From positions 1-63,496 of the forward strand of contig JARQWU010000030.1 of assembly GCA_040182905.1 (NCBI GenBank): a stretch of DNA of 63,496 bases, written 5' to 3'. The translations under genes were made by a program, and so were the position numbers. This stretch comes from Barthelona sp. PAP020. Its lineage: Eukaryota. Position 1 is the stretch's first letter. Each line of letters starts with the position of its first letter. Below are positions 1,768-56,547 of this stretch, piece by piece. The notes below the pieces were generated by a model that did no database searches, was not told the DNA's origin, and saw nothing but the letters and a program-made list of their open reading frames with translations.

Positions 1768-3006
1768 ATGACAAGTGAAAGAATAGTAGGCTATGAAAGA
1801 AATCTTCAAAATAATATTAAGTACGGAATGTATCCAGGAAAAGCAGAAGAAGATCATATTGGAATGTGGGTTGCTGATCAAGATTTAGAGATAGCTCCCA
1901 TTATTACTAAACACCTGTGTGATCGTATTGTGGACATTCCCAATTATGGTTATGAGGCTGCTCCTGAAAGCTTTTACAATGCGATTTTACAAAACAGTTT
2001 TGAACATAATATCAAAGATATTGACCGAAAAAACGTTTTATTCGTACCAAATGTATTATCTGGATTGATTGCTTGTCTTAATGAATTGACAAGTGTTGGA
2101 TCAACTGTTGTTTTGGCAAATCCCATATATTTTTCGTTTATTCCTCATATTTTGAACATTGGAAGACAGGTTAAAACAGTTCCTTTGCAAAAAGATAGTT
2201 CTGGGCATTTCATATACGATTTTGAACAATTGGAAGATGTTCTGTCAAATGATGATGTAAGTCTTTTTGTGTTTTGTAATCCACATAACCCTGGTTTTAA
2301 AGTGTTTACCGTGGAAGAAACATTGAGAATTACTGAACTTTGTGAAAAATATGGTGTTGTTTTTGTGAGCGATGAGATACACTGTGATCTTGTTTTAGAT
2401 GGGAGCCAATTTAACAGCGCATTATCTGTGTATGATAAAGCTATCATTCTCACATCTGTTTCAAAAACTTTTAATTTGGCAATGATTGAAACTGCATGGA
2501 TTCTCTGTAAAGATACATATTTTTTGAAAAGATTGAAGAAATATTCAACTTCTCATGGATTTTTCCCTACACCTTTTGCTACTGTAGCTACGACAACTGC
2601 AATTAATTTGGCCCAACCATGGAGAATGGAATTGATCAAATTTATCAATCATCATTTGGACCTATTTGAGAACTTGGTTAAAAAGACAAACGAAAAGTTT
2701 GATTTGAATATTGTTTTTGTCAGGCCACAAGCTTCTTATTTATTTTGGATTGACCTTGATGAAGTTTCTCAAGGAAAAGTAAGTGGCGATACTTATCAAA
2801 GAATATTGAGGGATGATTATAATATTTCTGTTTCTTCAGGGGATTCCTTTGGTTCAAAAGGTCGTGGTTGCATGAGAGTTAATTGCGCAATATCTGATGA
2901 AAGGTTTAATGAAGCTTTAATAAGATTTGAAAAGTTTTTTGAATATATCGCTTTAAATAAGGAAGAATTAATTGAAAGTGAGTGTGAAAAAAGAAATAAA
3001 ATGTAA
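1768..3006 (+). CDS. MalY/PatB-family PLP-dependent C-S lyase (cystathionine beta-lyase-like), bacterial type
   Basis: Motifs MWVADQD, YGY, FCNPHNP, SDEIHCDL, SVSKTFNLA (PLP lysine), PQASYLFWID and MRVNCA. First ATG is at 1768. Confidence 0.9.
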   Translation: MTSERIVGYERNLQNNIKYGMYPGKAEEDHIGMWVADQDLEIAPIITKHLCDRIVDIPNYGYEAAPESFYNAILQNSFEHNIKDIDRKNVLFVPNVLSGLIACLNELTSVGSTVVLANPIYFSFIPHILNIGRQVKTVPLQKDSSGHFIYDFEQLEDVLSNDDVSLFVFCNPHNPGFKVFTVEETLRITELCEKYGVVFVSDEIHCDLVLDGSQFNSALSVYDKAIILTSVSKTFNLAMIETAWILCKDTYFLKRLKKYSTSHGFFPTPFATVATTTAINLAQPWRMELIKFINHHLDLFENLVKKTNEKFDLNIVFVRPQASYLFWIDLDEVSQGKVSGDTYQRILRDDYNISVSSGDSFGSKGRGCMRVNCAISDERFNEALIRFEKFFEYIALNKEELIESECEKRNKM

Positions 3007-6800: not shown

Positions 6801-9800
6801 TCTTTCAAAATACTCATCAGTATTGTTATTCATCAGGTATCTCAATATCATACCCTTTTGAATACTGCTAACGGGAGATATAATCTCAAGATCTTTGATT
6901 TCATCAAAGAATGATGTGAAGTCATTTATATTCATGGATAATTCGTCTAAAGTAAAACCAAAATCATTGGAAATCCATCCTTGTTTTGAAGCTGATTCAG
7001 TTAAAATACAAGAACAAATATCTTTGACAAAAAGCTTGGTTTCTTTAACTAACAATTTAGCTTCTTTTTCAGAAACTAATCTTGAGTTATAATTGACATT
7101 AATTGATAAAATTCCATTGAAAACACCAATGTTGAAATCAATAACATAAGGGAAAGTGTTCTTTTTGGAAACATCACTTCCAACACCACCAACAATTTCG
7201 AATTTATCAGAAGCATCGTCAGTGGTTTCATCGGTCAACACACCAAGATAATTGAATCCGATTTCTGTGATGGATTCAGCATTGACATATTCATCAGTCA
7301 AATATCTTAAATTTTGATATCCTATACCACCTTGAGGAACTCTCTTTAACAATTGTTTGATCATTCTAACTTTTTCAAACATCGAAACATTGGAAGACTG
7401 AAGTTCAACAAGAACAGGATAAATAGTAGTGAACCACATAACATTGTTAGAAACATCCATTCCTTCAAAATCTCTTCCATGACCCTCTAAATTAACTCTA
7501 AATTTGGAGATATCAAAGATTTTATTGAGTCCCAAAACAACAGCGGTAAATATGACATCCATAGGAGTAAATGCAGATATATTGGAGATATTGTTGACAA
7601 GTAATTTTGTTTCATCAACATTTAATGCTTCTTCAACAGCTGGGGCTTCAGCATAAGTGCACTTATTGATTGAATGTGCAATATGATCAACCTTTGCTAA
7701 AATAACTTCATGCCAGTATTGTTTTTCTGCAGCAGAAACCTTATACAAAGTCCATTCTTCCAGTTTTCTTCTCCATCCTCCAAGTGACACATTCAAAGCA
7801 ACATTTTTAGCCTTTTTAAAGGTAGACAATTCCAGATAAATGCGATTAATCTCAGGAATTAAAACATGCCATGATACAGCATCAACAATGAAGTGATGAA
7901 GTACTAAAGTCAAATAATCACATTCAGAAGTTCTCAACAACAAAGCACGAGCCAAAGGAGCCTCAGTTAGAATAATTTCAGTCTGAATTGTAACACCTTC
8001 ATTGATCAAATCTTCCTTTGTTGTTTCAATTAAAGGTAAATCAAAATAAACGTCTTTTGCTTCAGCAAATTTGAATGATTGCTGATCTTCACTCAATGAC
8101 ATTCTCAAAGATGAGAAACTAGAAATCAAAACTTGCAAAACATCTTGCATAATGGAATAATGGACATGTCCAGGACATCTGATCACAAAGGCTTGATTGA
8201 AATATTCTGGAACAGCATGCTTTTGTTCAAAGAACCACTTGTGAATAGGCCACAATGGCATCGTTGCATTTTCAGTCAAATCAGTTTTTTGATTCTCTTG
8301 AATTCGTGCTATGAGAGCCAAACGTCTCAAAACAGGATTTCTGAAAATATCTTGTGGAGTAATTTGAATATCAAACGCTCTTGCACGTGAAACAAGTTGC
8401 AAAGACAAAATCGAATCACCACCAAGTTTGAAGAAATTGTCATCCAAATTGACATTTGGAACTTTCAAAAGGTCCGACCAAATGCCTGCCAATACAACTT
8501 CATTGTTGGTTCTGGGTTTTTCACCGGTAGTAATAGGTTCAGCAGATGCAAACATATGTTGAGACAAGAAATCAGAGGAAGATAAAAGTTTTCTGTTTGC
8601 TTTTCCTGCAGGTGTCAATGGAATTGATTTCAATGTGATGATCAATGAAGGAATCATATATTCAGGCAAAGTTTTTCCAAGGTGTTGCCTAACAGCTTCA
8701 GAAGAAACATTTGCTTCACCAACAAGCAATAAATATGCAACAAGCCTTTGCCCCAATTCTTCATCTTTGTTGACAACAACAATAGTTTGTTGAACAACCT
8801 GCATAGAAGTGATAGCAACTTCAATTTCACCCAACTCGATTCTGTTGCCTCTGATCTTGACCTGTTGGTCGACACGACCGACGTAGACGAGGTTGCCATC
8901 ACGGGTCCAGTGCACGAGGTCACCGGTCTTGTACATGCGTTCTGATCCTGGGAAGGGACATGGGACGAAGCGAGATGCGGTGAGCTCTGGCTGTTTGTAG
9001 TATCCACGGGCCAAGCCATCACCGGCGATGTAAAGTTCACCAGCAACGCCAATGGCACAGAGTTGCATGTTCTTGTCCAAAACATAAAGTTGGTTGTTTG
9101 CGACTGGACGTCCAATTGGAGGCGCGACGCCAATGTTTTCAAGGGTGCAACGGAAGAATGAAGAATCGATTGTTGTTTCAGTGGGACCATACAAGTTGTA
9201 CAGTTCTGCATGTCCGAGACGAGTCAAACATGTTTGAGCAGTTGTTGAAGGCAATGCTTCACCTGATTGAACGATCAGACGAAGAGAAGGCAAGGAACCA
9301 GGCTCAACGAATTCAAGGAAGGCACCAAGCATAGAAGCAACGAAATGCATGACAGTGATCTTGTGCTGAGAAACAAAGCGAATTATTTCATCAGGGTTAT
9401 TTTGTGCACCTGCTGGAAGAAGACACAACGTGGCTCCAAATAAGAAAGGTGCAAAGAGCTCCCAAACTGAGACATCGAATGAATATGGAGTCTTTTGGAT
9501 GATGCGATCTTCAGCGCAGAAACCGAGGTTACGCTTCCAAAGTAGACGATTCACAACTGAACGATGTTCAACGCAAACACCCTTTGGTGTACCGGTTGAA
9601 CCAGATGTGTAGATAACGTACATGAGGTCATGTGTGTTGACGGGAAGGTTAAGATTCGATGAGTCGTTGTTTATCCATGCAGATGAATCCTCAATGTTAA
9701 TAAAGTTCATGTTCAATCCCTCAAATATGCTCATAAACTTGGGTTGACCGATAATCGTTGTGGTTTCCGAATGCTCCACGAAGTAGCGCAAACGCTCACT

Positions 9801-12800
9801 TGGATATGCAGGATCAAGTGGAAGATATGCAGCTCCAGATTTCAGGATAGCCCACAGCACAATTGGAAGATCAGCGCAACGTTCCATGCACACACCGACA
9901 GTTGTGTTGTTATTCAGCGTCTGCAAGTGACGGGCAAGGCGGTTCGCCTTTGCATTGGCATCCCTGTATGTGTAAGACACGTGGTCATCAGCAATCGCCG
10001 TTTTCTCAGCGTGCATATCAACAGCATCCTCAATAAGCCCGTGAATGGTCGTCTCAGGGAAACTTACAGGCAGAGGGTTGAAGGAATGAAGGAATAATTT
10101 TTCAGAACTTGGTAAAATGGCATAGTTCTTCACAGACATCAAATTGTCTTTCAGAATTTCATCGACCAAAACATTGAAACGTTTCATCATTGATTCAATA
10201 GATTGCTTGGAAAATAGTTCGTCAGAATACTCTAATTCGATCTTCATTTCCTTGTTTGGTTGTACCATACAAGAAAAAGTCATGTCCAATTTTGATCCAG
10301 CTTGACCAATATCACAAGGTGAAATTGAAAAACCATCAAACTTGGGCATTACATCAGTTTGCATTAACATATTAAACATAATATTAAAAACTGGATTTCT
10401 ATTTGAAACACGACTGTCCAATTTATCAACAATCTGATCAAAGAAAACTTGTTGATGTTTTAAAACACCAACATTTGCATCAATGACTTGTTTCAACAAG
10501 TTATTAAAGGATTGATTTTCATCAATCAGTACATCAATGGGTAAAGGATTAACAAAATACCCAACAGTATCATTAAATCTACCATCCCAACGACCATGGG
10601 TGGGAAGACCAAACAAAAGATCCTTTTGATTGGTATGCTTGTATAACCAAATGCAAAATATGGTCATCATAACCGAATTCAAAGTGGTGGAGTTTTGTTG
10701 ACAAATTCGTTCTAATTGGTGAACTGTTTGGGCCGATATATTGAAAAAAACACTTTCACCTGTAAATTTCAATTGTGTTGGTCTAACAAAATCTGTTGGT
10801 AATTCAGTAGCCTGTTTACCACTTATTCTATCAACGAAATAATCCAAAGAACTATTATCTTGAGTTACGGATGAACTGTAATCAATATAAGAGTATTGAA
10901 GTGGTTCAAGAACAACATTGTTGTATAATTTAGCCAAATCATCAAGAACAATTTGATCACAAGATCCATCAATACAAATATGATGTGTGACCATTAAAAA
11001 TTGTTGTGATGAAACATAAAACTTCATAATAGGTCCATTTTCTAAATCAACAGGCAAAGAGCGTAATTCACTAATTGCAAGTTTTTCACAGGACTCAAAA
11101 TAGAACATTTCATCAACTGGTTTTACAGTTTGAATTAATTTTCCATCTGAAGTTTGTTTATACAATGTACGGAATGAAGCATGACGTTCAATAAATTGTT
11201 TACATGCTTTTTCAAATCTAATAAAGTCTACATCTCCTTCAAAATTGAACAATGAACTGTAGTTGTAAAACGTAGAAGTTGGTTCAAAAATTTGCAAATA
11301 ATACAATGCAGCTTGGGATGGAGACAAACCTGAAGATAGTTTTGAACTCATAGCCAATGAAGTTTCTTCAACTTTAATCAAACTAGTACAATGAGCCGCA
11401 AGGACTTTCAACGAAGAAGCCAAAAAGACATCCGACACATTGACAGACAAACCAATCAAACTCAACTCATGAATCATCATCATGACCAAAACAGAATGTC
11501 CACCCAACGAGAAGAAATTATCAGACATGGAAATGACTTCATTATTCAACAGTTTTTTCACAATAGCAAGTACAGCTCTTTCATTATCAGTGATAGGTTC
11601 AACCAAATCTTTCCTAGCTGTAGTAGCACAATAATTATCAACATTGGGCAATTTTTTTCTGTCAACTTTGCCATTGTTAGTCAAAGGAATGGTATCAAGT
11701 TCAATAAAATAAGAAGGAATCATATAGAGTGGTAAATTCATTTTTAAATACTCAATAAAATTTTCTAAATCCAATTCATTGTGAGATACATAGTAGCATG
11801 CCAAATCAAGGGTTGTAGAGCCAGATTTAGTAACAGCAATGACAACAATGTCCTTAATATCAAGATATCTTGATGCAACAGCTTCAATTTCACTCAATTC
11901 AACACGGAAACCACGAATCTTAACTTGAGTATCATCTCTACCAACAAATATCAAATCTCCATCCCAGTTCCAGCTGGCTAAATCACCAGTAAGGTACATT
12001 TTACCCTCTTTGAATGGGTTATGCACAAATTTATCTCCTGTAAGTTCTTCATTGTTAATATATCCTTCAGATAAACCATCACCAGAAATAACTAATTGTC
12101 CGATAGTACCTACAGGACAACGGTTCATATTGTCATCTAAAATGTAACAAATTTGGTTGGCAAGTGGTTTTCCAATTGATAAATTAGCATCATCAATGGA
12201 CAAAACTTTAGCAGTTGTATCAACAGCAGCTTCTGTAAGTCCATAAGAATTAACCAATTTACCATTTGGAAATATGGATAAAAAGTGTTTTGCATCATCA
12301 ATAGACCAATAATCTGAACCACAAGCAACTCTACAAAGGCTTTTAAAAACTTTATTTGTCATTTTCAATCCACGTAAAACAGCGGGCACGAATTCAGCAA
12401 ATTGTGGTTGGATATCATCAATTAAAGAAGCCAATTTGGTTGAGTCTAACAAAAGTTCACGATCAACAATAATGAGATTACCACCGGAACCAAGAGATCT
12501 AACAATATCACCTGTACAAACATCAAAACTAAAAGAAGCCATTTGCAAATGCTTCCATTGTGGTTCAAGTCCATAGAAATGTTTCCAAGCAAAATATTGA
12601 TTGGTAATGGCCATTTGACCAACTTTAACTCCTTTAGGTTTGCCGGTGGTACCTGAAGTGAACAAAACATAGGCAAGATTTGCCACATCAATTTCTGGAA
12701 GATGAACATTTTTCATAACATCAAAAGAAATTTCAGACAAACAAAGGGTTTGAATGTTTTTAAAATACTTTGCAGTACTTTTACATGTAATAACTAAAGA

Positions 12801-14264
12801 AGAATTAGATTGTTCTAGAATTGAACTGATTCTTTCTTCAGGAAACTTGGAATCGATAGGTAAATATGTATTACCTGAAAATAATACAGCTAACATAGCT
12901 AGAATCATATTCACAGATCTATCAACACAAATACCAATAATCTCATTTCTGTTTGGAATAAGTGACACCAATTGAGCAACAAACAATTGTAATTCATTGT
13001 AAGTATATGATCCATTTTCGTCTGTGACTGCAATTTTATCAGCATACAATTCAAACGCCTCTCTAAACAAAGATGGCAATGAATGATGAGAACATTCAAT
13101 CTTTGGACCATTTTCAAAAGAATCAAGTAATTGCTTCATACCATCAGATAATAAAACAATGGAAGAAATTCTTTGATTCAAAAAGAAAGGATCAGACAAT
13201 TGAACAAGCAGATATTCATACATGTCCAATAGTTGTTCAATATCTTTGCTGAAAAGCTTTGAGGTTACCTTCAAAACAATTTCCTCCTCCTCGAAAATAA
13301 CTTCCAAAGAAAGTGGATATTCGCTTGAATTGGAATTAGCATTGAAAACAAACATGACTTGATCATATTTCTTGAATGATTCGTCATAAGGAGCTGTTGA
13401 ATTTTGAAGTCTTTGATAAGCATTTTTTACAGTTTCATTATTCATTGAATTGTACATATGAACAAAATTGGGAATATTGACAAGGAAATTGTTCATATTA
13501 AAAAGTTTGCTGAGCACAACTTCAAGAGATATCAAGCAAATCGAATTAGAAGAAATTTTCAAGGATTCGACTCCTTTTTGAATTATATTCAAAGAAATCT
13601 TACGTTCACAAACTGTGGTTTGATTGGTAAATCCATGCACTGGAATAATTTCCAAAGAATCAATGGAAGGATTCTTAAAGTCGCTTAAATTAAAGGGGTT
13701 TCCAAACAAAATACTTTGAATAGCATGATAAATAACAGCAAAATAACTTGTTTTTTCATATCGATGATGAGAATTAATTTGATTGCAAATCATTTGATGA
13801 GTTAATAATTGATACTCATCTTGATCAAAATACATGCAAAAACCATCATTTTCATTGTAATTTAGGTTTAAATTTGAATCATCAAACTCATTTAATCTGG
13901 AAAGATATTCATTTTCAAAAACACAAGTAACATCTTCATAAACATTACTTTCTTTGGTAAATAACAATTTAATAGAAGTATCAATTGGAATATTCCTTGA
14001 ATAAATGAATAAAGAAATAGCTTTACATTTTTGAATGCCAAATATTAAGGGAAAAAAATTAATATCAAAAAAATCCATATCAATACCCACCTTATCATCA
14101 ATACCAACATCTAAACTCATTAAATATCGGGCAATTTGATTAGATTTCTTGTTTAAATTATCAAAACTTAAAGTTTTTCCATAATCAATTATGGCATCAT
14201 TTTCACCATATTTTTTAATTTGTTCTTCAAACCCAGCGATAATATTAACAAAATTTTGGTTCAT
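3804..14264 (-). CDS. Non-ribosomal peptide synthetase: (degenerate A, partial C)-A-T-C-A-T-E-C-(degenerate A)-T-TE
   Basis: A motifs FTSGTTGKPKG and YTSGSTGTPKG, NxYGxTE, GRxDxQVKIRG. T motifs GGHS, GGDS, GGHS. C motifs HHICIDG and HHLTIDG. E motifs HHFIVDAVSW and NLEGHGR. TE motif GYSFGG. The ORF is uninterrupted; probable ATG at 14264. Confidence 0.96.
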   Translation of the reverse strand: MNQNFVNIIAGFEEQIKKYGENDAIIDYGKTLSFDNLNKKSNQIARYLMSLDVGIDDKVGIDMDFFDINFFPLIFGIQKCKAISLFIYSRNIPIDTSIKLLFTKESNVYEDVTCVFENEYLSRLNEFDDSNLNLNYNENDGFCMYFDQDEYQLLTHQMICNQINSHHRYEKTSYFAVIYHAIQSILFGNPFNLSDFKNPSIDSLEIIPVHGFTNQTTVCERKISLNIIQKGVESLKISSNSICLISLEVVLSKLFNMNNFLVNIPNFVHMYNSMNNETVKNAYQRLQNSTAPYDESFKKYDQVMFVFNANSNSSEYPLSLEVIFEEEEIVLKVTSKLFSKDIEQLLDMYEYLLVQLSDPFFLNQRISSIVLLSDGMKQLLDSFENGPKIECSHHSLPSLFREAFELYADKIAVTDENGSYTYNELQLFVAQLVSLIPNRNEIIGICVDRSVNMILAMLAVLFSGNTYLPIDSKFPEERISSILEQSNSSLVITCKSTAKYFKNIQTLCLSEISFDVMKNVHLPEIDVANLAYVLFTSGTTGKPKGVKVGQMAITNQYFAWKHFYGLEPQWKHLQMASFSFDVCTGDIVRSLGSGGNLIIVDRELLLDSTKLASLIDDIQPQFAEFVPAVLRGLKMTNKVFKSLCRVACGSDYWSIDDAKHFLSIFPNGKLVNSYGLTEAAVDTTAKVLSIDDANLSIGKPLANQICYILDDNMNRCPVGTIGQLVISGDGLSEGYINNEELTGDKFVHNPFKEGKMYLTGDLASWNWDGDLIFVGRDDTQVKIRGFRVELSEIEAVASRYLDIKDIVVIAVTKSGSTTLDLACYYVSHNELDLENFIEYLKMNLPLYMIPSYFIELDTIPLTNNGKVDRKKLPNVDNYCATTARKDLVEPITDNERAVLAIVKKLLNNEVISMSDNFFSLGGHSVLVMMMIHELSLIGLSVNVSDVFLASSLKVLAAHCTSLIKVEETSLAMSSKLSSGLSPSQAALYYLQIFEPTSTFYNYSSLFNFEGDVDFIRFEKACKQFIERHASFRTLYKQTSDGKLIQTVKPVDEMFYFESCEKLAISELRSLPVDLENGPIMKFYVSSQQFLMVTHHICIDGSCDQIVLDDLAKLYNNVVLEPLQYSYIDYSSSVTQDNSSLDYFVDRISGKQATELPTDFVRPTQLKFTGESVFFNISAQTVHQLERICQQNSTTLNSVMMTIFCIWLYKHTNQKDLLFGLPTHGRWDGRFNDTVGYFVNPLPIDVLIDENQSFNNLLKQVIDANVGVLKHQQVFFDQIVDKLDSRVSNRNPVFNIMFNMLMQTDVMPKFDGFSISPCDIGQAGSKLDMTFSCMVQPNKEMKIELEYSDELFSKQSIESMMKRFNVLVDEILKDNLMSVKNYAILPSSEKLFLHSFNPLPVSFPETTIHGLIEDAVDMHAEKTAIADDHVSYTYRDANAKANRLARHLQTLNNNTTVGVCMERCADLPIVLWAILKSGAAYLPLDPAYPSERLRYFVEHSETTTIIGQPKFMSIFEGLNMNFINIEDSSAWINNDSSNLNLPVNTHDLMYVIYTSGSTGTPKGVCVEHRSVVNRLLWKRNLGFCAEDRIIQKTPYSFDVSVWELFAPFLFGATLCLLPAGAQNNPDEIIRFVSQHKITVMHFVASMLGAFLEFVEPGSLPSLRLIVQSGEALPSTTAQTCLTRLGHAELYNLYGPTETTIDSSFFRCTLENIGVAPPIGRPVANNQLYVLDKNMQLCAIGVAGELYIAGDGLARGYYKQPELTASRFVPCPFPGSERMYKTGDLVHWTRDGNLVYVGRVDQQVKIRGNRIELGEIEVAITSMQVVQQTIVVVNKDEELGQRLVAYLLLVGEANVSSEAVRQHLGKTLPEYMIPSLIITLKSIPLTPAGKANRKLLSSSDFLSQHMFASAEPITTGEKPRTNNEVVLAGIWSDLLKVPNVNLDDNFFKLGGDSILSLQLVSRARAFDIQITPQDIFRNPVLRRLALIARIQENQKTDLTENATMPLWPIHKWFFEQKHAVPEYFNQAFVIRCPGHVHYSIMQDVLQVLISSFSSLRMSLSEDQQSFKFAEAKDVYFDLPLIETTKEDLINEGVTIQTEIILTEAPLARALLLRTSECDYLTLVLHHFIVDAVSWHVLIPEINRIYLELSTFKKAKNVALNVSLGGWRRKLEEWTLYKVSAAEKQYWHEVILAKVDHIAHSINKCTYAEAPAVEEALNVDETKLLVNNISNISAFTPMDVIFTAVVLGLNKIFDISKFRVNLEGHGRDFEGMDVSNNVMWFTTIYPVLVELQSSNVSMFEKVRMIKQLLKRVPQGGIGYQNLRYLTDEYVNAESITEIGFNYLGVLTDETTDDASDKFEIVGGVGSDVSKKNTFPYVIDFNIGVFNGILSINVNYNSRLVSEKEAKLLVKETKLFVKDICSCILTESASKQGWISNDFGFTLDELSMNINDFTSFFDEIKDLEIISPVSSIQKGMILRYLMNNNTDEYFERRIFKLSNDINLVRLKQAFIQTFDIHPMLRSQYLIDFDEPLFYVRKNISFDWKVIKLPAAEKSDIIEIVNDCMFEEAKEKFDLRRKDKILHRFVIIDFEKEKYMLWLHHHLTIDGYSTSLLFNDVVSFYNGIGLTVPMSNYRDYIKHVFSKPIVDVDYWKPKMSNVSPCNLPLLAKPTDNVTNKRIIHELPSKVFNDLSSLVTDLGIPLTSTIVLSWSITLALLTSAKPVFGLTLSGRSIDLVDIDKIIGPFVNTLPLVTDNLNGSIRQLLHKTNEDIQELNAHSTDELIEVLNLARKTGVSIGSLFDTLLVFDGSRASNVEEQTNSDVPFEVIDGADRTEFPLVISVSMEEGITFKATYIEGNDEYVKYVLDLFMNVLYRIPTAQNFNEIKKDLLEEYHFNNSLLNTPSFADLIESMHGYVKWTDGSLMIDEKVSIDNNVAITNDINVENINLILQNILKGKDVTIDKNVISNKHIIHGDTKISMSRYIYAIYEYQRIFAKLEGNQILIVASQISDVLSLLFACLLSGKNVQFETNITENATNVLLFKNDILNFSSNVEIANFILVGDVTLDDVNHMEKKYPSSSIHVVVAHDIFPLMTGNKKHLEVVRYIGVTSELNEEQVFKGCQGYVTIKTDDEFKTLTKHLTSSVIQRLDNSYQLVAISDVKDLLNIEETIIEDYGFNSIDHYKIGDIMSKLLRVPIKHISSVTNFFHIGGHSLLVMKLLSQLKRELNISISINKFNEEPTIEGIIKNRTTENMNQPIKTSVISSGLVNKPNLFLIHSGNGTATEYLSLLDKVQNFNIVALADPLFGNIKEMHFASMKALVDSYLKTILEIQPSGPYFIGGYSFGGNAALLVAQQLEKTGSAVDSVVIIDSHNPINLKSHLPVGSEEEIIKQVMEAYELNNRKTALELRNEVFVLDNLLMQSRIWNNLIDIKLNTRCYLLKATEKVEMDQGIHNGLATFFNNADTIEIKTIDCDHQHIFDHPEIVANFIDEISN

Positions 14265-14589
14265 TTGAGAAAGAAAAAAATAATAAATTTTCATTCAAAG
14301 GAATTTTGTGGACAATATTCAATCAAAAAAAAATTCCCATTTAAACACGAATAACGCAAAATATTGCCGTAAACGTCTTATTTATAAAAAAAAATAACGA
14401 AAAAAAGCTAAAAAAAAATCGTGAAATCAGAAAAATTGATTGCTAAAGTAACAACCTTAAAAAACTAAGGAAATAGGGATTTTTGCACCCAATAATTTGT
14501 TAGTTTATTATCATAAAGGTATAATGGACTTAGATCAATCTGAAAAGTGTGGCTTTGAACAGGGAAGAGAAAAAAAGGGCGAAGAGAAT

Positions 14590-29224: not shown

Positions 29225-29398
29225 AATTGTTTCCAAGCCAAGAAGCACTGTGCGTATGAGTGAATGAAAAAGAATAGTGTTTATTTGGTTAAAGGTTTTC
29301 GAGGACCGATTGATCTGTTGAAAAACTTTAGATTTTCTGAGGAAAAGTTTAGACTTTGAAATTTTGCTTTTTGCAAAATTACAATAAATAAGAATGAA
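29225..29398 (-). repeat. Dispersed ~175-bp repeat, copy A (inverted relative to B and C)
   Basis: Approximate reverse complement of 29663-29836 (e.g. gaagcactgtgcgtatgagtgaatgaaaaagaatagtgtttat). Confidence 0.92.
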
Positions 29399-29549
29399 AA
29401 ATATAGTTGTTTCACAACTGGACCAAATTAGCTTTTGAATTAACAAAAAGAAATTATAATCAAATGAGAATTGAATTTTACAATTCTATTGAATCCATAT
29501 TGTAATTGATTAATTAAAAAATTGGTCAAGTTGTGAAACAACTATATTT
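29399..29549. repeat. ~31-bp inverted repeat pair nested between copies A and B
   Basis: aaatatagttgtttcacaactggaccaaatt (29399-29429) versus aaattggtcaagttgtgaaacaactatattt (29519-29549). Confidence 0.9.
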
Positions 29550-29662
29550 ATTTACAAAGAAAAAGCAATCAGAAAAAACTCATTTCATTAAATCTCAGCC
29601 ACAGAAAATAAGTGGCTGCAATTGAATCTTAATCATCAAGAATGAAAATTTTGGAAAAATTC

Positions 29663-29836
29663 TTCATTCCTATTTTTTTGTATTTTTGCAAAAGCAAAAT
29701 TTTAAAGTTTGAACTTTACCTTGGAAAATCTAAAGTTTTTCAACAGATCAATCGGGCCTCGAAAGCCCTTCACCACATAAACACTATTCTTTTTCATTCA
29801 CTCATACGCACAGTGCTTCTTGTCTTGGAAATAATT
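29663..29836 (+). repeat. Dispersed ~175-bp repeat, copy B
   Basis: gcaaaagcaaaattttaaagtttgaactttaccttggaaaatctaaagtttttcaacagatcaatc...ctcatacgcacagtgctt. Confidence 0.92.
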
Positions 29837-30427: not shown

Positions 30428-31912
30428 CTAATCATCATTGTCATCACTATCATCATCTTTCATCTCTTCATCAATATACTGACGCATATTGCCATCATTC
30501 CTTTCATTGATGTCAATCAAATCCCAACATAAGTTGATTGATATGTCAAAATCTCTTTGATTCATGTAGACTCCAGCACTGACAAATTCTCGGATGATGA
30601 CACTGTTCACATTCATTGCAACAAGAGTTGATAAAAGATAGCCCTCATTCTTTACCAATTCAATTAATTCAGCTTTGGACAAGTGCTCAAATTTCAAATC
30701 AGCAGGTTCACTACTCTTCAATTGTTGTTTTAAATTGGGACAGCTCAAAATACTGTATTTGTTCTTTTTCCATTGTTCATCACTTGTATACAATCTGTTG
30801 AAAAATAACAGCATATCTTCACTATATAGGTTTATTTCGGGACAATCTAGAAGCATCTTGGCAATATCAAGATAACCATAATAACAACTGACATACAATG
30901 GAGAAAATCCACCGTCCCTACACAAATTAACATCAGCTCCATGATCCAAGAGCATTTTGGCAACATCAAGATGACCATTTTGACAACTGATGTACAATGG
31001 AGAAAGATTAGCATTCCTGCACAAATTTACATCAGCCCCATAATCCAAGAGCATTTTAGCTACATCAAGATGACCAAGTTCACAACTGATGTACAATGGA
31101 GAAGCACCTTCATCCATACACAAATTAATATCAGTTCCATGATCCAAAAGTATTTTGGCAACATCAAGATGACCATTTTGACAACTGATGTACAATGGAG
31201 AACTACCATCATCAGGACACAAATTAACATCAGCTCCATGATCCAAGAGTATTCTGGCAACATCAAGATGACCATTTTGACAACTCATGTACAATGGAGA
31301 ACTACCATCATCAGGACACAAATTAACATCAGCCCCATGATCCAAAAGCATTTTGGCAACATCAAGATGACCATTTTGACAACTGATGTACAATGGCGAA
31401 AAATTTTCATTATTATTACCCAAATTAACATCAGCCCCATGATCCAAGAGTATTCTGGCAACATCAAGATGTCCATTTTGACAACTGATGTACAATGGAG
31501 AACTACCATCATCAGGACACAAATTAACATCAGCTCCATGATCCAAAAGCATTTTGGCAACATCAAGATGACCATTTTGACAACTGATGTACAATGGAGA
31601 AGCATTATCATTCATACTCAAATTAACATTAGCGCCAAAATCCAACAAAAATTCAATAACTTCTATATGCCCATTAAAAGCAGCTCCCCAAAGCGATGTC
31701 CTTCCTTCCTTGCCCTGTTTATTCACATCAACGCCAGCTTTGATACACTGCTTGACAACCTCAAGATTATCATCACATGCTGCATAATAGATCTTCTTTG
31801 GTCGACCATTATCTTCAAATCCATCCACATCGAACCCATCTGGAACAACAACTTTGTCCATGTTATACTTAACATAAGGGTCAGTTTCTTCAACCGCAGT
31901 GTTAACAACCAT
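30428..31912 (-). CDS. Ankyrin-repeat protein (about 10 repeats, 8 near-identical) with the 'WDLxDINE' C-terminal domain
   Basis: Eight SPLYxSCxxGxLDxAxxLLD units; C-terminus LIELVK...NLCWDLIDINERNDGNMRQYIDEE plus an acidic tail. Probable ATG at 31912. Confidence 0.93.
   Translation of the reverse strand: MVVNTAVEETDPYVKYNMDKVVVPDGFDVDGFEDNGRPKKIYYAACDDNLEVVKQCIKAGVDVNKQGKEGRTSLWGAAFNGHIEVIEFLLDFGANVNLSMNDNASPLYISCQNGHLDVAKMLLDHGADVNLCPDDGSSPLYISCQNGHLDVARILLDHGADVNLGNNNENFSPLYISCQNGHLDVAKMLLDHGADVNLCPDDGSSPLYMSCQNGHLDVARILLDHGADVNLCPDDGSSPLYISCQNGHLDVAKILLDHGTDINLCMDEGASPLYISCELGHLDVAKMLLDYGADVNLCRNANLSPLYISCQNGHLDVAKMLLDHGADVNLCRDGGFSPLYVSCYYGYLDIAKMLLDCPEINLYSEDMLLFFNRLYTSDEQWKKNKYSILSCPNLKQQLKSSEPADLKFEHLSKAELIELVKNEGYLLSTLVAMNVNSVIIREFVSAGVYMNQRDFDISINLCWDLIDINERNDGNMRQYIDEEMKDDDSDDNDD
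30845..31630. repeat. Coding tandem array of 99-bp units (one 102 bp)
   Basis: ggcaacatcaagatgaccattttgacaactgatgtacaatggaga recurs at ~99-bp spacing. Confidence 0.95.
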
Positions 31913-32660
31913 TGTCGGCAAAAAAAAAAAAAAATGCAAACCTGTAAAAATTTCTCATTTCTCTTTAGACATTCAATATTTATCCCTGAAATCAGGCATT
32001 ATTTTAGTTTAGTTGTTGGCAAAATGAAATTCGATAATTGATTGACTGGTTTGTGGAGAACTCTTCACAATATTAATTAATTCTTGAGACCTCCTTTTTC
32101 GAATTGATGCAGCGAATTGAACTTACGATATTGATTTAAACATTGTGAAAATGTCGCACAATTATGAAGGTTTGTCATAATGATGTTTGTTCTAATATTT
32201 TTTACAAAAGACATTGTTCCATTTCATTTTTGCAGATTTGTTGATGTAATGATGGTATTGACATATTTATACTCACGAAATTCACAAATTAAACTTGCAA
32301 GAGTGCGATATGCATTCACCAAATTTTATCTTTGTGTTCCATTGAAGAAACCTTTTTCATTTCTTCAATGAGCCTACAATGTTGTTAGTGTGACAACCTT
32401 CAATTTAATTAAATAAAGGCAACATCATTTATAATTGTTTTTTGTTCTTGTTGTGTTGGACTCCAACAATCGGTATGGTAACAACAAGAAAAGATAAAAG
32501 TGGCATGAGACTTTGGTGTAGTGGTGATGCAAACTAATACAGAGAAAGAAGACCAAAGAGTCATTTTGGGAAATTTTGGTCAAAATTCAGGGTGTGAGAT
32601 CCAGATTGAAAGTACATTGTGTATCCAGGTTGGGTCTTTGAAAAGAATTTCTGACCCTAC

Positions 32661-32815
32661 TTTTTTGAATTTTTGCAAAAAGCAAAATTTCAAAGTCTAA
32701 ACTTTACCTTAGAAAATCTAAAGTTTTTCAACAGATCAATCAGCTCTCGAAAGCCTTTAACCAAATAATCCAAATTCTCTTTTTATTCACTCATACACAC
32801 AGTGCTTTTTGGCTT
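32661..32815 (+). repeat. Dispersed repeat, copy C (direct to B, inverted to A)
   Basis: gcaaaaagcaaaatttcaaagtctaaactttaccttagaaaatctaaagtttttcaacagatcaatc...ctcatacacacagtgcttt. Confidence 0.9.
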
Positions 32816-32975
32816 TAAAATAAAAAGAATTTTATTTATTTAATTTCAGTCAATCTTCAATATATATTGTGAATTTTCAGAAAAAAAAAAATTTAATGAT
32901 ACAACATTCTATTAAAAGGAAATAATTTTCAACTGTTTTGTTGTCTCATTCAACCCAATGTATATAAAATTAGAA

Positions 32976-33047
32976 GCCGAAATAGCTTAGTGGTAGAGCA
33001 TCCGTTTTGTAAGCGGAAGGTCCGCGGTTCAATCCCGCGTTTCGGCA
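32976..33047 (+). tRNA. tRNA-Thr (anticodon TGT)
   Basis: Cloverleaf: acceptor GCCGAAA/TTTCGGC-A, D arm GCTTAGTGGTAGAGC, anticodon arm TCCGT-TTTGTAA-GCGGA, T arm CGCGG-TTCAATC-CCGCG. No encoded CCA; a TTTT run follows. Confidence 0.96.
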
Positions 33048-33059
33048 GTTTTGCATTTT

Positions 33060-36000
33060 CCTTTGCAAGACATAGGATCGAGTCTTTATAATGAGAAAAA
33101 ATTCCATTACTCAATAAGAAAAAAAAGAGCCTCATTGAATTCACGTTAGACGAAAGACAAATTCATGATGCAAAACAGAAAATGATTATAAAAGCTTTTA
33201 CAAGGATTATAGGATGAGAAGGTTGGCTAGTTAGTGTTTGTCAATTCCTGATCTGAGTTTAGTTCGTGAACTGAATGCCCAAAATCTTCACGAACTGAAT
33301 GAACGAACTCAGAACAAGCACAATAATGCTTTGCCATCTCGGTAGATTTCCATCCACCCAATACCTTTACATAGCTTATATCTCCTCCATACTTCTCATC
33401 CTTTCCCAAGAAAGCTTGCCTTGCTCTTCCTCTTCTGAAAGAGTGCAAGGTCAATGGTTGATTAAATCTTCGTAATTTGTTAAAGTCTCTCAAATGCTTT
33501 GCCAAATCGTTACATATCATATCTGTCTCCTTAGGCATTCTACTTAAACATAAAACCTCTGTATTCCGTAATCTCTTGGCAAATATCTTGAAAGTACCCT
33601 TCTTGTCATCTAAATGTTCCAATTCCTCCCAAAAGAGACTAACCTCCTTTGTATCTTCTACCTTTTGGCACCATATGTGCAAGACTGCAGTTTGCTTCCC
33701 AATATATAATGTCATATTTCCTCCGCAGATATCCGACTTCCTGCAACAGAAGAAGAACAGAGTATTTGCGGTATCGATCAGGTGGCTTCGATATGTCGCA
33801 TCGATTTCACCCCTCTTACATAACTCCCCTATGTAGTTACAAAAGTCGATTAATTGTTTGACTGTAATTGCTGTCCTTGTTCGGTGTTCCACCGTGTTTT
33901 CTGGCCTCATCTTGCGGCTCATCCTTTTCACCATCTGTGACATATGAATAAAGCCATCTGAGGGTGACCATCCCATACCTTTCCAGAAGAAAGTGACACC
34001 CGTGTACATACGCGCCAGCGTGTCCGCTCCCACCTTATACTTTCCTTGAGAGTTCACACACTTTCCTTCATCAATTATAAACTTATGGAGCATGTATTCC
34101 GTGTGATGGTTTAATTCTTCCCTATCATAACTGTTCCAATTCTTCATAGCAAACTTTTCAAATCTTGCTAGATATCCTGTGTACTGCTTCCATGTCGCAT
34201 CCGACAGTGATTTTTTCATTGTTTCAAGTATTAGTGGGTTACTAAGCGCATATACTTCTTGGATTTCTTCATCTAGATCCTCCACCTCGTGTTCCCTTTC
34301 GTTTGATCTTTCTTTTCGTATTTCTATCATATGTCTTCCTTCCTTTAAATCAACTAAAGCTATCCACGCCGGATAATCTGTCGCGCAAATGCCCGTCACT
34401 GTTACATTTCTACCAAACCGTTTCGCTCTTAACATTAAATCCAACACGATATCTTCTACAGTATCTTTATAATATAACTTAGACCCAATCTTCTGAACCC
34501 CGGCGTAAAACAATATCGATTCGAAGTTTTGTGCCCCAAAGTCTTCATCAGATGCCAATGTATCTATTCCATTTTGTGGAAGTGTTTCTTCTTGATCTGG
34601 TTCTATCATATCCATCAGGTCTTTCTCCCACAAATCTTCTTTCAACTCTTCGGGGAAAGAACCACTACGTATTCTTTCTCGGTCTGTCATCCTTCTAACC
34701 TGCCGAGACTTACCACTTAACAGCTTTCCTGTCCTATTTTTGAACGTTGGACACCATCTTAGAGAAGTGAAACTTGGATAACAATACGAAGGTACATCAA
34801 AGACCTCCGGACATAAACTTATGTCCGAAAACACCCCATTGTGCGGTAAAGACACCGTTTCTCCCCTTGACAACAAATCTGCCACCGTGTTTCTCTCTGA
34901 AGGGATCCATAACGGGTAAACGTGACAATTCAATTGTTTCAGCAGTTTCCAAATCTTTTGCGAAAGGTCTGCTAAACTATTTACTGTGCTCTTATTCTTT
35001 CTGAAGGCAGCTAAAGCGTTTTGGTTGTCAATTAACCATACCCAAGCACCGTCTTTAGCTTGTTCTGGATATGTTGTCAACGCTATTTTTAAAGCTTCCA
35101 GTTCAGCGAAAGCAATACCTTTCTTAGCTTTGGTTATTTTCTTTGTTGAACTAACACCAAGAAGCTTGTCTTCAATCACAATTCCTACACCTTCCAGTGA
35201 CGCATCAGTTGCAACCACACCAGTAATTACCTTTGGTGCTAAATTTCCTTTCACGTTTGTTTGGACGAAGGCAAGAATTCTTTCCTGTAGATCTTCAGAC
35301 AGGTTTACTTTTGCGAAACCATGTTTTGCTATTAATTGTTTAAAATCAGTGCACCCATATCTCATCTTTAAATGCGTGTTAACGTTAGCTACTTCCATTG
35401 CCAGTTCCCTGTAGTTTTGGGAGATGAGGGTATATGCTTGTAGTTTTCCTTGTAGGGACAAGGAATCTTTCACTGTTAGCATTGAGTTAACCATTCCAAC
35501 AATGTCATCCACTTTACTTGTTGGAAGGCTGATCTTTCTCTCTTTAGTGTTCAGGATAAAACCCAAATATTCCACCTCTTGTGATGGAAGTTGACTCTTC
35601 TCTTCTTTTATTTTAAACCCAACAAACTTTAATAATTCTTTCACTGAGAATAGGTTGAGTTCACATTCTTCCTTGGTGTTACCCCCAATTAGCAAGTCAT
35701 CCACATATTGCAGCACAAAAATGCCTTTTGCCCTTGCTGCTTCAACAGGAACTTGTAGAGCCATTCCAAACAATTGAGCTGAAATTGAAGAGCCGAAAGG
35801 TAGCCTCACTGCACCGTAGAACTTACCTTCCACCTCGATCGTGAGTTGCTCCTTCCAGTCATCACTCAGGGGGATATGTGTGTATCCACTCTTTATATCA
35901 ATGACAGCCACATAGGCTGGCAGAAAGGGAAAATACTTCACACAATTAATTTCGTGCGGCCAAATCTGGGTTACCACATTTAGTGGAGTGCAGTCTAAAA

Positions 36001-37530
36001 TGGGTCTTATGGTTCCATCTTTTTTTGGTACTGCTCCTAGAGCTCCGTTTCTTTTGCCTGGTTCTTGCACTTCTACCAGGACTCCTTCATCAATCCATTG
36101 GGTTAAAACTTGCTTGAGATGTTTTCCAGCCCAATGAGATACTTCTTTTGTAATGCCCGTTTCTTCATCCAGTAATGTGGGGGCGCCTTTGACAATTTCT
36201 TTGAGCAAGTCAATCTGGTCTTGTTTATAGTTGAGTTGTTCCGCCAACAACGTGAAGTTTTCGATTGACCATCCACTTGTCCCGTGTAATTTTATTGAGG
36301 GATTATCTACCTTAGGTGGGGGTTCTTTATTCCCTCTTTCCACCTCCTCAATTAGGATTTTCTCCGGTTTTTCTTCTGTTTCCTCCTGTTGTGCTTTCTC
36401 TCTTTTGATAGCACTTGTTTCTCTCTTTTTAATCCAGGACTTCAGGTCCCCAACGTCGCGTTGACGTTCTTTTACATCCACGCGAATATTTGCGTACTTT
36501 TCAATTTTCTTGTCAATGAGAGACAAGACACTTGATGTTGCTACTCCTTTTGAGTTTTCATTTAATAAAAAATAAGTTTCTTTTTTGTGTTTATTAGAAG
36601 AGAATTTAGCCTTCATCTCCGGCACTGGGAACGTAAAGCTAAATTTGGAGGACATCCACTGGTTTAGAGTTTGTGGAGAGCACTCCCAGGGTTCAGTTTC
36701 CAGGAATTTTTCTGTTACCAACTTTATGATTGGTAACAGAGCTTCCACCTCTGTTGTATGACCTCTTCTACAGCAAGTTTTTAGGAACTCACCTACCCAA
36801 AGCGCCATGTTGAGCGTGGAAATGCTCTTTTTGAATTGAAAATGACCGTCAGCATCCTGTTTCTTGGTCTCTCTAAATTTTATTCCTGAGAAGAGGTTTT
36901 GAACCCACTCTTCATACACAAAAAAATTTGAGCAATCCTTTGCGATTGCATCCTCTTCATTGGTGGTGCTCTGTAACACACCACCCTTTTTAATTAGACC
37001 CATAAGCTCAGTTAAGGTAGTCTTGAGCTGGTCCACGTCTTCTTTTAAAGAATCAACCTTTTGATGTTGATCTGTCATGTTTAAATTTTGGTTTAATTTG
37101 ATAACATCTTCCAATTTTGAAATTCCAACTTGTTCAGAAATGGCGGGAAAGTTTTTCCTGCGCCGGAAAACATTCTTTTCTCTTTTCCCGCAAAGTTCTT
37201 GTCGCAGGCTGAAACTTTGTAGGATTAATCTCTGATACTGGTTGATCTGGTGTAGGGAAACCGGCTAGCATATTGTGGGTTTTGCTTGACTCACACAAAC
37301 GCATCCAAACATTTTCTTGTTGTTGCTCTCTTATGAAATGCCCGCTGCGCTTCACAATTCTTTGAGTCTGGAAAGAAAAAAAAAAGTTCATATTTGTAAA
37401 GAGGTGTGGTCTTAAGGAAAATAAAATTCTTATTGTTTTGATATTCTCTTTTCCAGATTAAAAATTTTCATTCTTTTGGAATTATTAGCTTTATATACAG
37501 GAGTATCTTGGTCAGTTCTTCCTTTGCGTC
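33060..37530 (-). mobile_element. Tyrosine-recombinase (DIRS-order-like) retrotransposon; boundaries uncertain
   Basis: Contains the RT-RNase H-YR ORF and is less AT-rich than its flanks. No long terminal repeats were found by eye, so the ends are estimates. Confidence 0.75.
33227..37114 (-). CDS. Single-ORF polyprotein: coiled-coil/gag-like - reverse transcriptase - RNase H - tyrosine recombinase
   Basis: RT: VPKKDGTIRPILD, IDIKSGYTHI, LPFG, QYVDDLLI, EYLGF. RNase H: TDAS, AELEA, IDN, WIPSERNTVADLLSR. YR: LSDATWKQY, FCCRKSDI, HSFRRGRA, LGGWKSTEMAKHY. First ATG is at 37078. Confidence 0.95.
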   Translation of the reverse strand: MEDVIKLNQNLNMTDQHQKVDSLKEDVDQLKTTLTELMGLIKKGGVLQSTTNEEDAIAKDCSNFFVYEEWVQNLFSGIKFRETKKQDADGHFQFKKSISTLNMALWVGEFLKTCCRRGHTTEVEALLPIIKLVTEKFLETEPWECSPQTLNQWMSSKFSFTFPVPEMKAKFSSNKHKKETYFLLNENSKGVATSSVLSLIDKKIEKYANIRVDVKERQRDVGDLKSWIKKRETSAIKREKAQQEETEEKPEKILIEEVERGNKEPPPKVDNPSIKLHGTSGWSIENFTLLAEQLNYKQDQIDLLKEIVKGAPTLLDEETGITKEVSHWAGKHLKQVLTQWIDEGVLVEVQEPGKRNGALGAVPKKDGTIRPILDCTPLNVVTQIWPHEINCVKYFPFLPAYVAVIDIKSGYTHIPLSDDWKEQLTIEVEGKFYGAVRLPFGSSISAQLFGMALQVPVEAARAKGIFVLQYVDDLLIGGNTKEECELNLFSVKELLKFVGFKIKEEKSQLPSQEVEYLGFILNTKERKISLPTSKVDDIVGMVNSMLTVKDSLSLQGKLQAYTLISQNYRELAMEVANVNTHLKMRYGCTDFKQLIAKHGFAKVNLSEDLQERILAFVQTNVKGNLAPKVITGVVATDASLEGVGIVIEDKLLGVSSTKKITKAKKGIAFAELEALKIALTTYPEQAKDGAWVWLIDNQNALAAFRKNKSTVNSLADLSQKIWKLLKQLNCHVYPLWIPSERNTVADLLSRGETVSLPHNGVFSDISLCPEVFDVPSYCYPSFTSLRWCPTFKNRTGKLLSGKSRQVRRMTDRERIRSGSFPEELKEDLWEKDLMDMIEPDQEETLPQNGIDTLASDEDFGAQNFESILFYAGVQKIGSKLYYKDTVEDIVLDLMLRAKRFGRNVTVTGICATDYPAWIALVDLKEGRHMIEIRKERSNEREHEVEDLDEEIQEVYALSNPLILETMKKSLSDATWKQYTGYLARFEKFAMKNWNSYDREELNHHTEYMLHKFIIDEGKCVNSQGKYKVGADTLARMYTGVTFFWKGMGWSPSDGFIHMSQMVKRMSRKMRPENTVEHRTRTAITVKQLIDFCNYIGELCKRGEIDATYRSHLIDTANTLFFFCCRKSDICGGNMTLYIGKQTAVLHIWCQKVEDTKEVSLFWEELEHLDDKKGTFKIFAKRLRNTEVLCLSRMPKETDMICNDLAKHLRDFNKLRRFNQPLTLHSFRRGRARQAFLGKDEKYGGDISYVKVLGGWKSTEMAKHYCACSEFVHSVREDFGHSVHELNSDQELTNTN

Positions 37531-38540
37531 CTATTTCAGTGAAATTTTTGTTGTTGCCAAATTAATTTCACACGACAATAACAATAAATGTTTATAAAGA
37601 CCTTTATTGTTCTCGGTTAGAGTTTGGGGGTACTTGCAACTGAGTCGTTTTGCGTGGATGGTTCAGAACACTCTTTAAAAAAAAAGCAATACTTTAGGTG
37701 TGGATGGGGCAATTATTAAAATAAAAGTTCAATAATTTTTTCTTTCTTAACAATAAATTTTGATTGTTCTTCTCTAGATTTCCTTGATGAAGCCTTATAA
37801 TTCCTTGTTAACCTACTATGTACACTTGTATCCTTTTTATCATGAATTATTTGATTTTTTGCTGTCATTTCACTGTCAATTTTGATACAACAACTATTAG
37901 AAATTGCAAGAAGAAACCTTAAACACATTTATATTGTGTTTTCTGTAAATCAGTCATCTTCTTCTTTGTTGTGAAGACTTTTCCAAGCAAAGAACTATAT
38001 TAACAGTTTTCTTCCCTATTTATTAATATTAAATTAACAAATATCTTTCTTTACATTGATTTCAAAATTTCTTGAGAACTTGAACATGATTTTTTTTCAC
38101 GATTGATGGCATAAAATATGAAGAAACCACAAATATTTTTAATAATATCCTTCTGATGAGCTTCAGGATTGGTTTGTTGAATATTCACATCTTTGAACAA
38201 AAAGATGAAATATTCATGTGGTTTATATTTCAAAATTATAAAAATTCATTGTAAATAACAGATTTGAGTGAAAAATCTAATGTTTGAAGAAGATTGTTCA
38301 GAAAAACTTCAAAAGTATGCTGTGTCAGTTTGGTTGTTTATTTGGAGATTTTAAGTTTTTTTTTAAACCTCTTATTTTGAAAATAATAAAGAACACCTCA
38401 ATTATTTAAAAAAAAAAGAAAATATTTTAAATTCAATTTTTTTTTTATTAGATTTGTTGTTATGTCAACATATTATTGAAAAAATAATTAAACTAGGAAA
38501 AGTAATTAATTATATATATTTGTATATGTTTTAAAATTAA

Positions 38541-55333: not shown

Positions 55334-56547
55334 ATGTCTTCTGAGTCAAATTATGAATTAATAGAAAGAACTATTAATGATATGTTTTATCCAAAACTTG
55401 ATGAAAGCAAAGTGAAAAAAGTTGGAGATGCTTTCTGAGCCCATGATGAATATTGAGTACTCACCAGATTGTAAATATTTGATTGTTGCTAGTTATTTCA
55501 ATAGTACTCATGTAATTGATGTTGAAACTGGAACACTGAATCACATTTTTGAAGATAATACGAGTGGTGTTAACATTATTACCTTCTCACTAGACAGACA
55601 AAAATTTGCAACATGTTCCATTGATAAGTCTTTTATTGTGTGGAGCCTTTAAGATTTTTCTATTTTGCGCGTATTGAGCAATAATTCATTTTTTTTTGGA
55701 ATTTGTTTTTCCTATTGTTCTAACTATGTGTTTTCTAGTGATAATGATGGGAACCTTACGAAATGGGATATATATGAAGGTAATGTTGTTTTGGAAAAAA
55801 AACCACATTCCAGTTTGATTTTTTGGGTAAAATTTTCGTCACATGGGAAGAATCTTTTGTGTGACAGTAATGATAAAACTACTAAGTTGGTTGACCCTGA
55901 TAATCTCTCTGTTTTTCGTGGTTCAATCAAGGTGCTTGGATTAAAGTCTTGGATTTTCATCCAACCAAAAGAATAATTGCTGTTGGTGATGTGTCAAAGA
56001 AATTCACACTTTGGAACATGGATGATGGATCACAAATTCTTACATTTGATATGGGAGGTTCAGTGTATGACCTTCATTTTCTTACACCAAACATCATACT
56101 TATTATGTTTGATGATGGATACATTTCGTCATACAGTCTGAGTAGCTTTCAGCAAATTCAAAAGGTTCACTGTGATTGCGATGAGTACATATTTTCATTT
56201 GCTGTGTCACCTGAATCGAGACAACTGGCATGTGCAAAGTGTGAAGGTGATAATATCAAGGTTTCCCAATTGAAACTAGCTATTAGCCGTCTCGTCAGTC
56301 TGAACTCATTAAATTGTCAAAAAACGGTGGTTTTGTTAATGGAATCTCATGTCTCCGAATATAATTACTCTAATCATTAGACAATTGGCAGCTACAGGTA
56401 TTTGTATGAATGAAGAGGACCATTAACACTTGCTGGGATTTGACTTATATCAACGAAACGAATGGTAGTAATATGCAAATGTTTCTTAATGAACAGAGGG
56501 ATGAAAGTGATAATAATAATGATGATGATGAAAATTTGCTAAAATGA
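55334..56547 (+). pseudogene. WD40-repeat gene of the 'WDLxDINE' family, frameshifted
   Basis: ATG at 55334, then WD40 fragments in different frames. The tail translates as ELIKLSKNGG...IIRQLAATGICMNEED...TCWDLTYINETNGSNMQMFLNE plus D/N. Collinear with the 427-1640 pseudogene. Confidence 0.85.

Follow-up and report, generated by a model that had tools for sequence, protein, structure and literature searches.

The question raised by this locus is whether a reverse transcriptase (RT), an RNase H and a tyrosine recombinase (YR) are encoded as one polypeptide, and whether such a fusion belongs to a lineage of retroelements or to a single copy. The locus lies on the minus strand of contig JARQWU010000030.1 (GenBank assembly GCA_040182905.1) of the barthelonid metamonad Barthelona sp. 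PAP020, of which 63,496 nucleotides were analysed (hereafter the window). The first-pass annotation, made from the DNA alone, had described an uninterrupted 1295-codon fusion of gag, RT, RNase H and YR, and had proposed an atypical, possibly new lineage. Our analysis indicates that this is probably an autonomous DIRS-order YR retrotransposon from an old lineage of its own; a single polypeptide would make cDNA from the RNA of the element and recombine this cDNA into the genome.

The reading frame was taken straight from the raw DNA, without any intron. It is free of stops from position 37264 down to the stop at 33227, which makes 1345 codons from stop to stop, and the probability of a stop-free frame of such length at the local base composition is about 1e-41. 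This confirms that RT, RNase H and YR lie in one uninterrupted frame. The 1295 codons proposed earlier are covered by it, but their start is a TTG (37114); the first ATG, at 37078, gives a protein of 1283 aa. No second long overlapping sense-strand frame was found within the element, and no protease or DDE integrase family matched the 1283-aa protein in Pfam and related domain searches, in agreement with the annotation. The features are listed in Table 1.

Table 1. Coordinates of the element, its domains and the adjacent tRNA gene in the window
Feature	Position	Strand	Basis
Single open reading frame (ORF): N-terminal region, RT, RNase H, linker, YR	33227..37078	-	domain order shared by two complete transcript-derived ORFs
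N-terminal region of ~260 aa, gag-like in position only, little conserved, without zinc knuckle	36293..37078	-	11-23% identity to relatives
Conserved pre-RT block and RT	35399..36292	-	RVT_1 E 1.7e-21; D394, YVDD at 35707
RNase H, D625, E659, D684 and D734 intact	34853..35215	-	RVT_3 E 2.3e-5; residues invariant in three proteins
Linker at the DIRS methyltransferase position, no known family or fold	34244..34852	-	two conserved blocks around an acidic spacer
YR core-binding (SAM-like) domain	33899..34243	-	structural matches: lambda-integrase, ALOG and Ndc10 core-binding domains
YR catalytic domain, R-K-HxxR-W-Y intact	33314..33898	-	sequence, predicted fold, residue conservation
tRNA-Thr(TGT) gene, convergent, own T run after it	32976..33047	+	179 bp past the ORF stop

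Relatives were then sought for the whole protein. Among 7994 scored candidates two stood out, with 741 and 733 bits, the next one reaching 83 bits. Both are complete Trinity ORFs from Barthelona sp. PAP020 (1209 and 1208 aa), each with an RT and a phage-integrase domain. They cover 96-98% of residues 260-1283 of the window protein at 40% and 38% identity and are colinear with it across the RNase H-linker-YR junction. An index-free search of 1.84 billion representatives yielded a further member, a fragment of 508 aa with 738 bits (180 bits for the next match), which is 54% identical over the RT, the RNase H and the beginning of the linker. Pairwise identity among the four members is 38-54%, and the catalytic residues of RT, RNase H and YR are all invariant in the three full-length proteins. 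With two named members in one species, this divergence would be expected of several retrotransposon families per genome; that one relative is Trinity isoform i18 faintly suggests several copies, the genome being poor in introns. No related loci with flanks were present in the metagenome contigs, viral contigs or prokaryote genomes searched.

The same layout in two transcript-derived ORFs at 38-40% identity indicates, at the level of sequence comparison, that the RT-RNase H-YR fusion is a family trait and not a local accident, and the fact that it is common to two such distant relatives makes an old, separate lineage likely. The annotation had named local mutation or assembly error as what would undo its proposal. 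It is very improbable that an ordinary multi-ORF DIRS or Ngaro copy was made single-frame in this way or by a gene-model join. Such joins do seem common in databases: RT and a YR part were joined in one record in 9 of the 147 next-best relatives, five with a cut-short methyltransferase (MT), two with a complete one and two with none, and the five cut-short records suggest gene-model joins. However, the present frame comes from intron-free raw DNA without a long overlapping sense frame, two independent transcript-derived ORFs run through the junction, and no separate ORF of 282-940 aa turned up when 5863 candidates were compared with a profile of the linker and YR.

The RT core is 59% and 54% identical to the two full-length relatives, and the RNase H (RVT_3, with the domain searched in isolation) is 49% and 47% identical. 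Both the YVDD motif and the D-E-D-D set reported earlier were borne out, the latter being the same in all three full-length proteins.

The YR match is weak in the window protein itself (Pfam E 0.03-0.07; PHROG integrase E 5.8e-4) and clear in the two full-length relatives, with Pfam E-values of 2e-15 and 1.2e-6. YR identity to these relatives is 28-33%, and all three proteins retain R1113, K1139, H1212-x-x-R1215, W1243 and Y1252. A single-sequence fold of the segment from RNase H to YR was useless (pLDDT 34); the YR fold was examined in a prediction from the three-sequence alignment, with pLDDT mostly 70-90 in the catalytic part. The top Foldseek match of this model was Cre (E 5.4e-7). A structure search that does not use Foldseek gave XerH (Z 12.5, rmsd 5.9, 261 aligned), a staphylococcal integrase (Z 12.2) and Cre (Z 12.0), and these three matches take in the core-binding domain too. 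The recombinase is thus Cre/Xer-like in its predicted fold, and the full YR with R...HxxR...W...Y that had been proposed stands.

The N-terminus had been called gag, a claim for which only the position fits: it is 23% and 11% identical to the two full-length relatives, it has no zinc knuckle, and no significant Pfam, NCBIfam or PHROG match was obtained.

A linker of about 200 aa between RNase H and YR had also been noted, and it is present. One of its conserved blocks (34679-34852) is 43-45% identical to the two full-length relatives, and the other (34334-34543) 37-39%. Searches against Pfam, NCBIfam and PHROG gave no match and the Atlas no usable one, so that no known family could be assigned; the linker part of the aligned-fold model had a pLDDT under 50 and hence its fold is not counted as new. 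Since it occupies the position of the MT in DIRS and is of comparable length, the data suggest that the linker descends from the DIRS MT or replaced it. A relic of the MT itself was considered and rejected. The linker can be aligned to the DIRS MT by eye, yet both profile tests were at chance: E 0.54 with 12 MT rows (62 of 100 shuffles as high) and E 0.26 with 99 MT rows (32 of 100). No Dam-like methyltransferase was detected after the RNase H with Pfam Dam. The segment YCYPSF, read earlier as a possible MT relic, corresponds to YVHETF in one full-length relative and to YTNETF in the other, and that reading is not supported, although a relic may have diverged beyond recognition.

The position of the family was analysed in two RT-RNase H trees, whose reference rows were classed by architecture and not by name, with no named Ngaro, PAT or other references. 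The first, of 42 rows, was built by a careful method after omitting four rows without a clear YxDD match, one near-duplicate, four cluster members and one host protein. The family was recovered with 100/100 and a branch length of 1.39. A 100/100 split sets the LTR/integrase elements apart, and the family falls with the DIRS order, within a starred set of 17 rows that includes both MT-bearing and MT-less pols. In the second, a quick tree of 51 rows (a chosen subset of the matches, four skipped), its support was again 100, and it was placed, without a star, outside the other DIRS-order rows. The two trees thus place the family differently, and neither assigns it to DIRS, PAT or Ngaro. A DIRS-type MT is present in 122 of the 147 next-best representatives. 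The RT and RNase H are of the DIRS-order type and a YR stands in place of a DDE integrase, with no protease, which are features of this order. As judged from these trees, the family is a long, well-supported separate branch among DIRS-order RTs, and the element is likely to be a new deep lineage within the DIRS-order retrotransposons. The suggestion of a distinct, possibly new lineage was thereby upheld, with reference rows that carry no family names.

The 51-row tree also contains P0145, one of the nine records that join RT and YR, a 967-aa single protein with RT, RNase H, linker and YR and no methyltransferase, on a separate deep branch. Its membership of the family was rejected, given that branch and a linker score of -2.9 bits, which 320 shuffles equalled; it may be another single-ORF lineage.

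The layout was compared with known systems. In YR retrotransposons three ORFs are described as the rule (PMC6681497, PMC3266345). Ngaro-like elements share a YR downstream of RT-RNase H, with a gag where the present element has its N-terminal region, and the absence of methyltransferase, protease and DDE integrase (PMC3783388, PMC8547959). They differ in their A1-B1-A2-B2 repeats, of which none was seen here, whereas the present element has one ORF that includes the N-terminal region and a conserved linker of about 200 aa; its RT does not group with support with unnamed MT-less, Ngaro-looking pols. With DIRS1-like and PAT-like elements (PMC3266345 and PMC4157794, as far as their descriptions extend) it shares nearest RT-RNase H relatives that mostly bear an MT, a linker at the MT position and a downstream YR. 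In contrast, no MT, inverted terminal repeat (ITR), internal complementary region (ICR) or overlapping YR frame was detectable here, RT-RNase H identity is about 25-30%, and gag, pol and YR are separate ORFs in DIRS1-like elements. Cryptons have a YR without an RT, whereas an intact RT occupies the same frame here. Cre, XerA/C/D/H and phage integrases share the recombinase fold and catalytic residues, at 8-15% identity; they differ from the element, which is fused to an RT and has no loxP-like end site above chance.

A precedent for the single frame is the VIPER-like TATE of Bodo saltans, a free-living flagellate, of which two copies have all three genes in one ORF; its gag has no CH-box, and the putative gag region of the present element has no zinc knuckle (PMC6681497 for TATE). 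There, however, the tabulated gene order is gag-like, YR, RT/RNase H, whereas here the YR is C-terminal, after the RNase H, and one TATE copy has split direct repeats. No proteins named VIPER or TATE were among the matches of the element. In fungal Ngaro the YR ORF can share a frame with RT-RNase H, the passage concerned not stating whether a stop intervenes (PMC3783388), and in SymbioDIRS and Cafeteria Ngaro the YR is described, in the excerpts available, as a separate ORF. The conserved single-ORF RT-YR layout stands, while its rarity was overstated, because single-ORF TATE copies and a same-frame fungal Ngaro YR had already been published (PMC6681497, PMC3783388). The family is real and conserved, yet it is a variant within a known order, in which single ORFs have been published before. 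No description of it was found in the literature searched, which excluded Repbase, subscription reviews (e.g. Poulter and Butler 2015) and paper supplements; the layout is absent from passages of PMC12477816, PMC12220804 and PMC2685390, and none of the papers retrieved on this order in barthelonid metamonads describes such an element, as judged by title and abstract.

Several observations weigh against an autonomous retrotransposon. The flanks of the ORF show no terminal repeats, whether inverted, split-direct or tandem, that exceed chance. The best inverted match between the flanks, as sought for a DIRS1-like ITR/ICR, was equalled by 177 of 200 shuffles, and the best direct match, as sought for Ngaro A1-B1-A2-B2 or PAT repeats in this copy, by 43 of 200. 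An ICR is required for the transposition of DIRS-1, according to the experiments summarised in PMC7192593. In addition, the N-terminus has no demonstrable gag homology, and there is no second copy of the element within the 63.5-kb window. The deviating codon composition (third-position GC, GC3, of 0.40, against 0.20-0.29 in 17 of 20 other window ORFs), which speaks for a mobile element, is a weak sign because three host ORFs in the window also reach 0.42-0.48. Nevertheless, an A-ORF-B-A-B element cut to A-ORF-B by recombination or assembly collapse would look equally repeat-free. Candidate recombination sites were rejected: a loxP-like palindrome at 37580-37611 has a 21/27 echo at 33174-33200, but the window holds 17 such palindromes and 43 of 200 shuffles gave an equal result.

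The lack of repeats in an intact ORF among ordinary host genes, with transcribed relatives, would also agree with domestication, in which a YR retrotransposon has become an immobile host gene kept for RNA-templated DNA joining or recombination. We consider this improbable. All three enzymes retain full catalytic sets, whereas the R-H-R-Y tetrad is typically lost in domesticated YRs, for example in the ZMYM family (PMC13465315); there are at least two divergent full-length members in one species, and the N-terminus diverges fast, in a gag-like manner.

The tRNA-Thr(TGT) gene of Table 1 is the sole tRNA gene in the window, and its distance from the ORF stop has a probability of about 2.5% by chance, although it was chosen after the fact at one locus. 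This leads to another alternative, in which the element is repeat-free by nature: the joined RT-YR would stay on its own RNA, make cDNA and pass it in cis to the recombinase, to be joined just downstream of tRNA genes, at a preferred site, as a YR counterpart of one-protein retroelements with targeted sites, R2 among them. The absence of repeats at either end and of a protease agrees with it, as does the conservation of the fusion and of the two linker blocks at about 40% overall identity. DIRS-1 cDNA is mostly linear and single-stranded, and in compact genomes the targeting of tRNA genes has arisen on several occasions (PMC7192593 and PMC5006619, respectively). We nevertheless regard this alternative as unlikely. 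The tRNA site was seen at one locus, and the far end of the element carries no repeated part of the tRNA, so that an att-like duplication was discarded. The ends produced by YR cleavage, a 3'-phosphotyrosine and a 5'-OH, do not allow priming of an RT in the manner of the R2 endonuclease. Loss of B-A-B, or its collapse to B, from A-ORF-B-A-B would also show no repeat. The literature search returned nothing linking DIRS/Ngaro tyrosine recombinase elements with tRNA-gene targeting. It is doubtful that the family represents a fifth YR retroelement group beside DIRS, PAT, Ngaro and VIPER, defined by one polypeptide, no terminal repeats, a linker domain of no known family, reverse transcription coupled in cis to recombinase-mediated joining, and insertion in compact metamonad genomes preferentially just downstream of tRNA genes.

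For the autonomous retrotransposon, the following course may be proposed. The fusion would have arisen once, when the recombinase ORF was brought into frame with pol and the linker replaced, or descended from, the methyltransferase. The transcript would be copied into cDNA by the RT and RNase H, the cDNA would become a circular, double-stranded intermediate, and YR recombination would insert the circle without target duplication, after the DIRS model as outlined in parts of PMC7192593 and PMC5006619. One polypeptide would supply all functions in equal amounts and, because the element has no protease, RT and YR would not be separated unless the acidic spacers were cut by a protease of the host. 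This copy may once have had terminal repeats that were lost or have collapsed.

The step from cDNA to insertion in YR retrotransposons is largely a model, and the main experiments were done on DIRS-1, whose ORFs overlap (PMC7192593). A natural one-ORF element with several divergent versions and intact RT, RNase H and YR offers a simple system for testing cDNA insertion, and could show whether RT and YR need separating and whether insertion can do without terminal repeats. With it, the DIRS order is extended to a barthelonid metamonad. A compact RNA-to-DNA writer with a recombinase would be of interest for genome writing, if it is site-specific.

The tRNA-Thr gene is flanked by the retroelement on one side and by a repeat fragment on the other. 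This fragment (32647-32843), which ends about 130 bp upstream of the gene, is a partial third copy of a MITE-like foldback element at 29225-29836, whose inverted arms measure 178 nt (88%) and enclose inner arms of 31 nt. Downstream of the retroelement lies an ankyrin-repeat gene (30428-31912, minus strand) with 99-nt units of 60-83% identity.

The window is AT-rich, intron-poor and dense in genes, and its eukaryotic genes include a kinesin, a Nup98 domain, a VPS13-like N-terminus and a flagellar CFA20. Of ten proteins of the window that were looked up in EukProt, one has an identical entry there. Two inverted paralogous stretches (563-1262 and 55716-56419), about 70% identical, lie 55 kb apart. 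An unbroken 3496-aa non-ribosomal peptide synthetase is encoded at 3804-14294 on the minus strand, with three condensation, three adenylation and three carrier domains and one thioesterase domain; it is possibly of bacterial origin, and in this flagellated protist genome its gene is adjoined by that of an aminotransferase (1768-3006).

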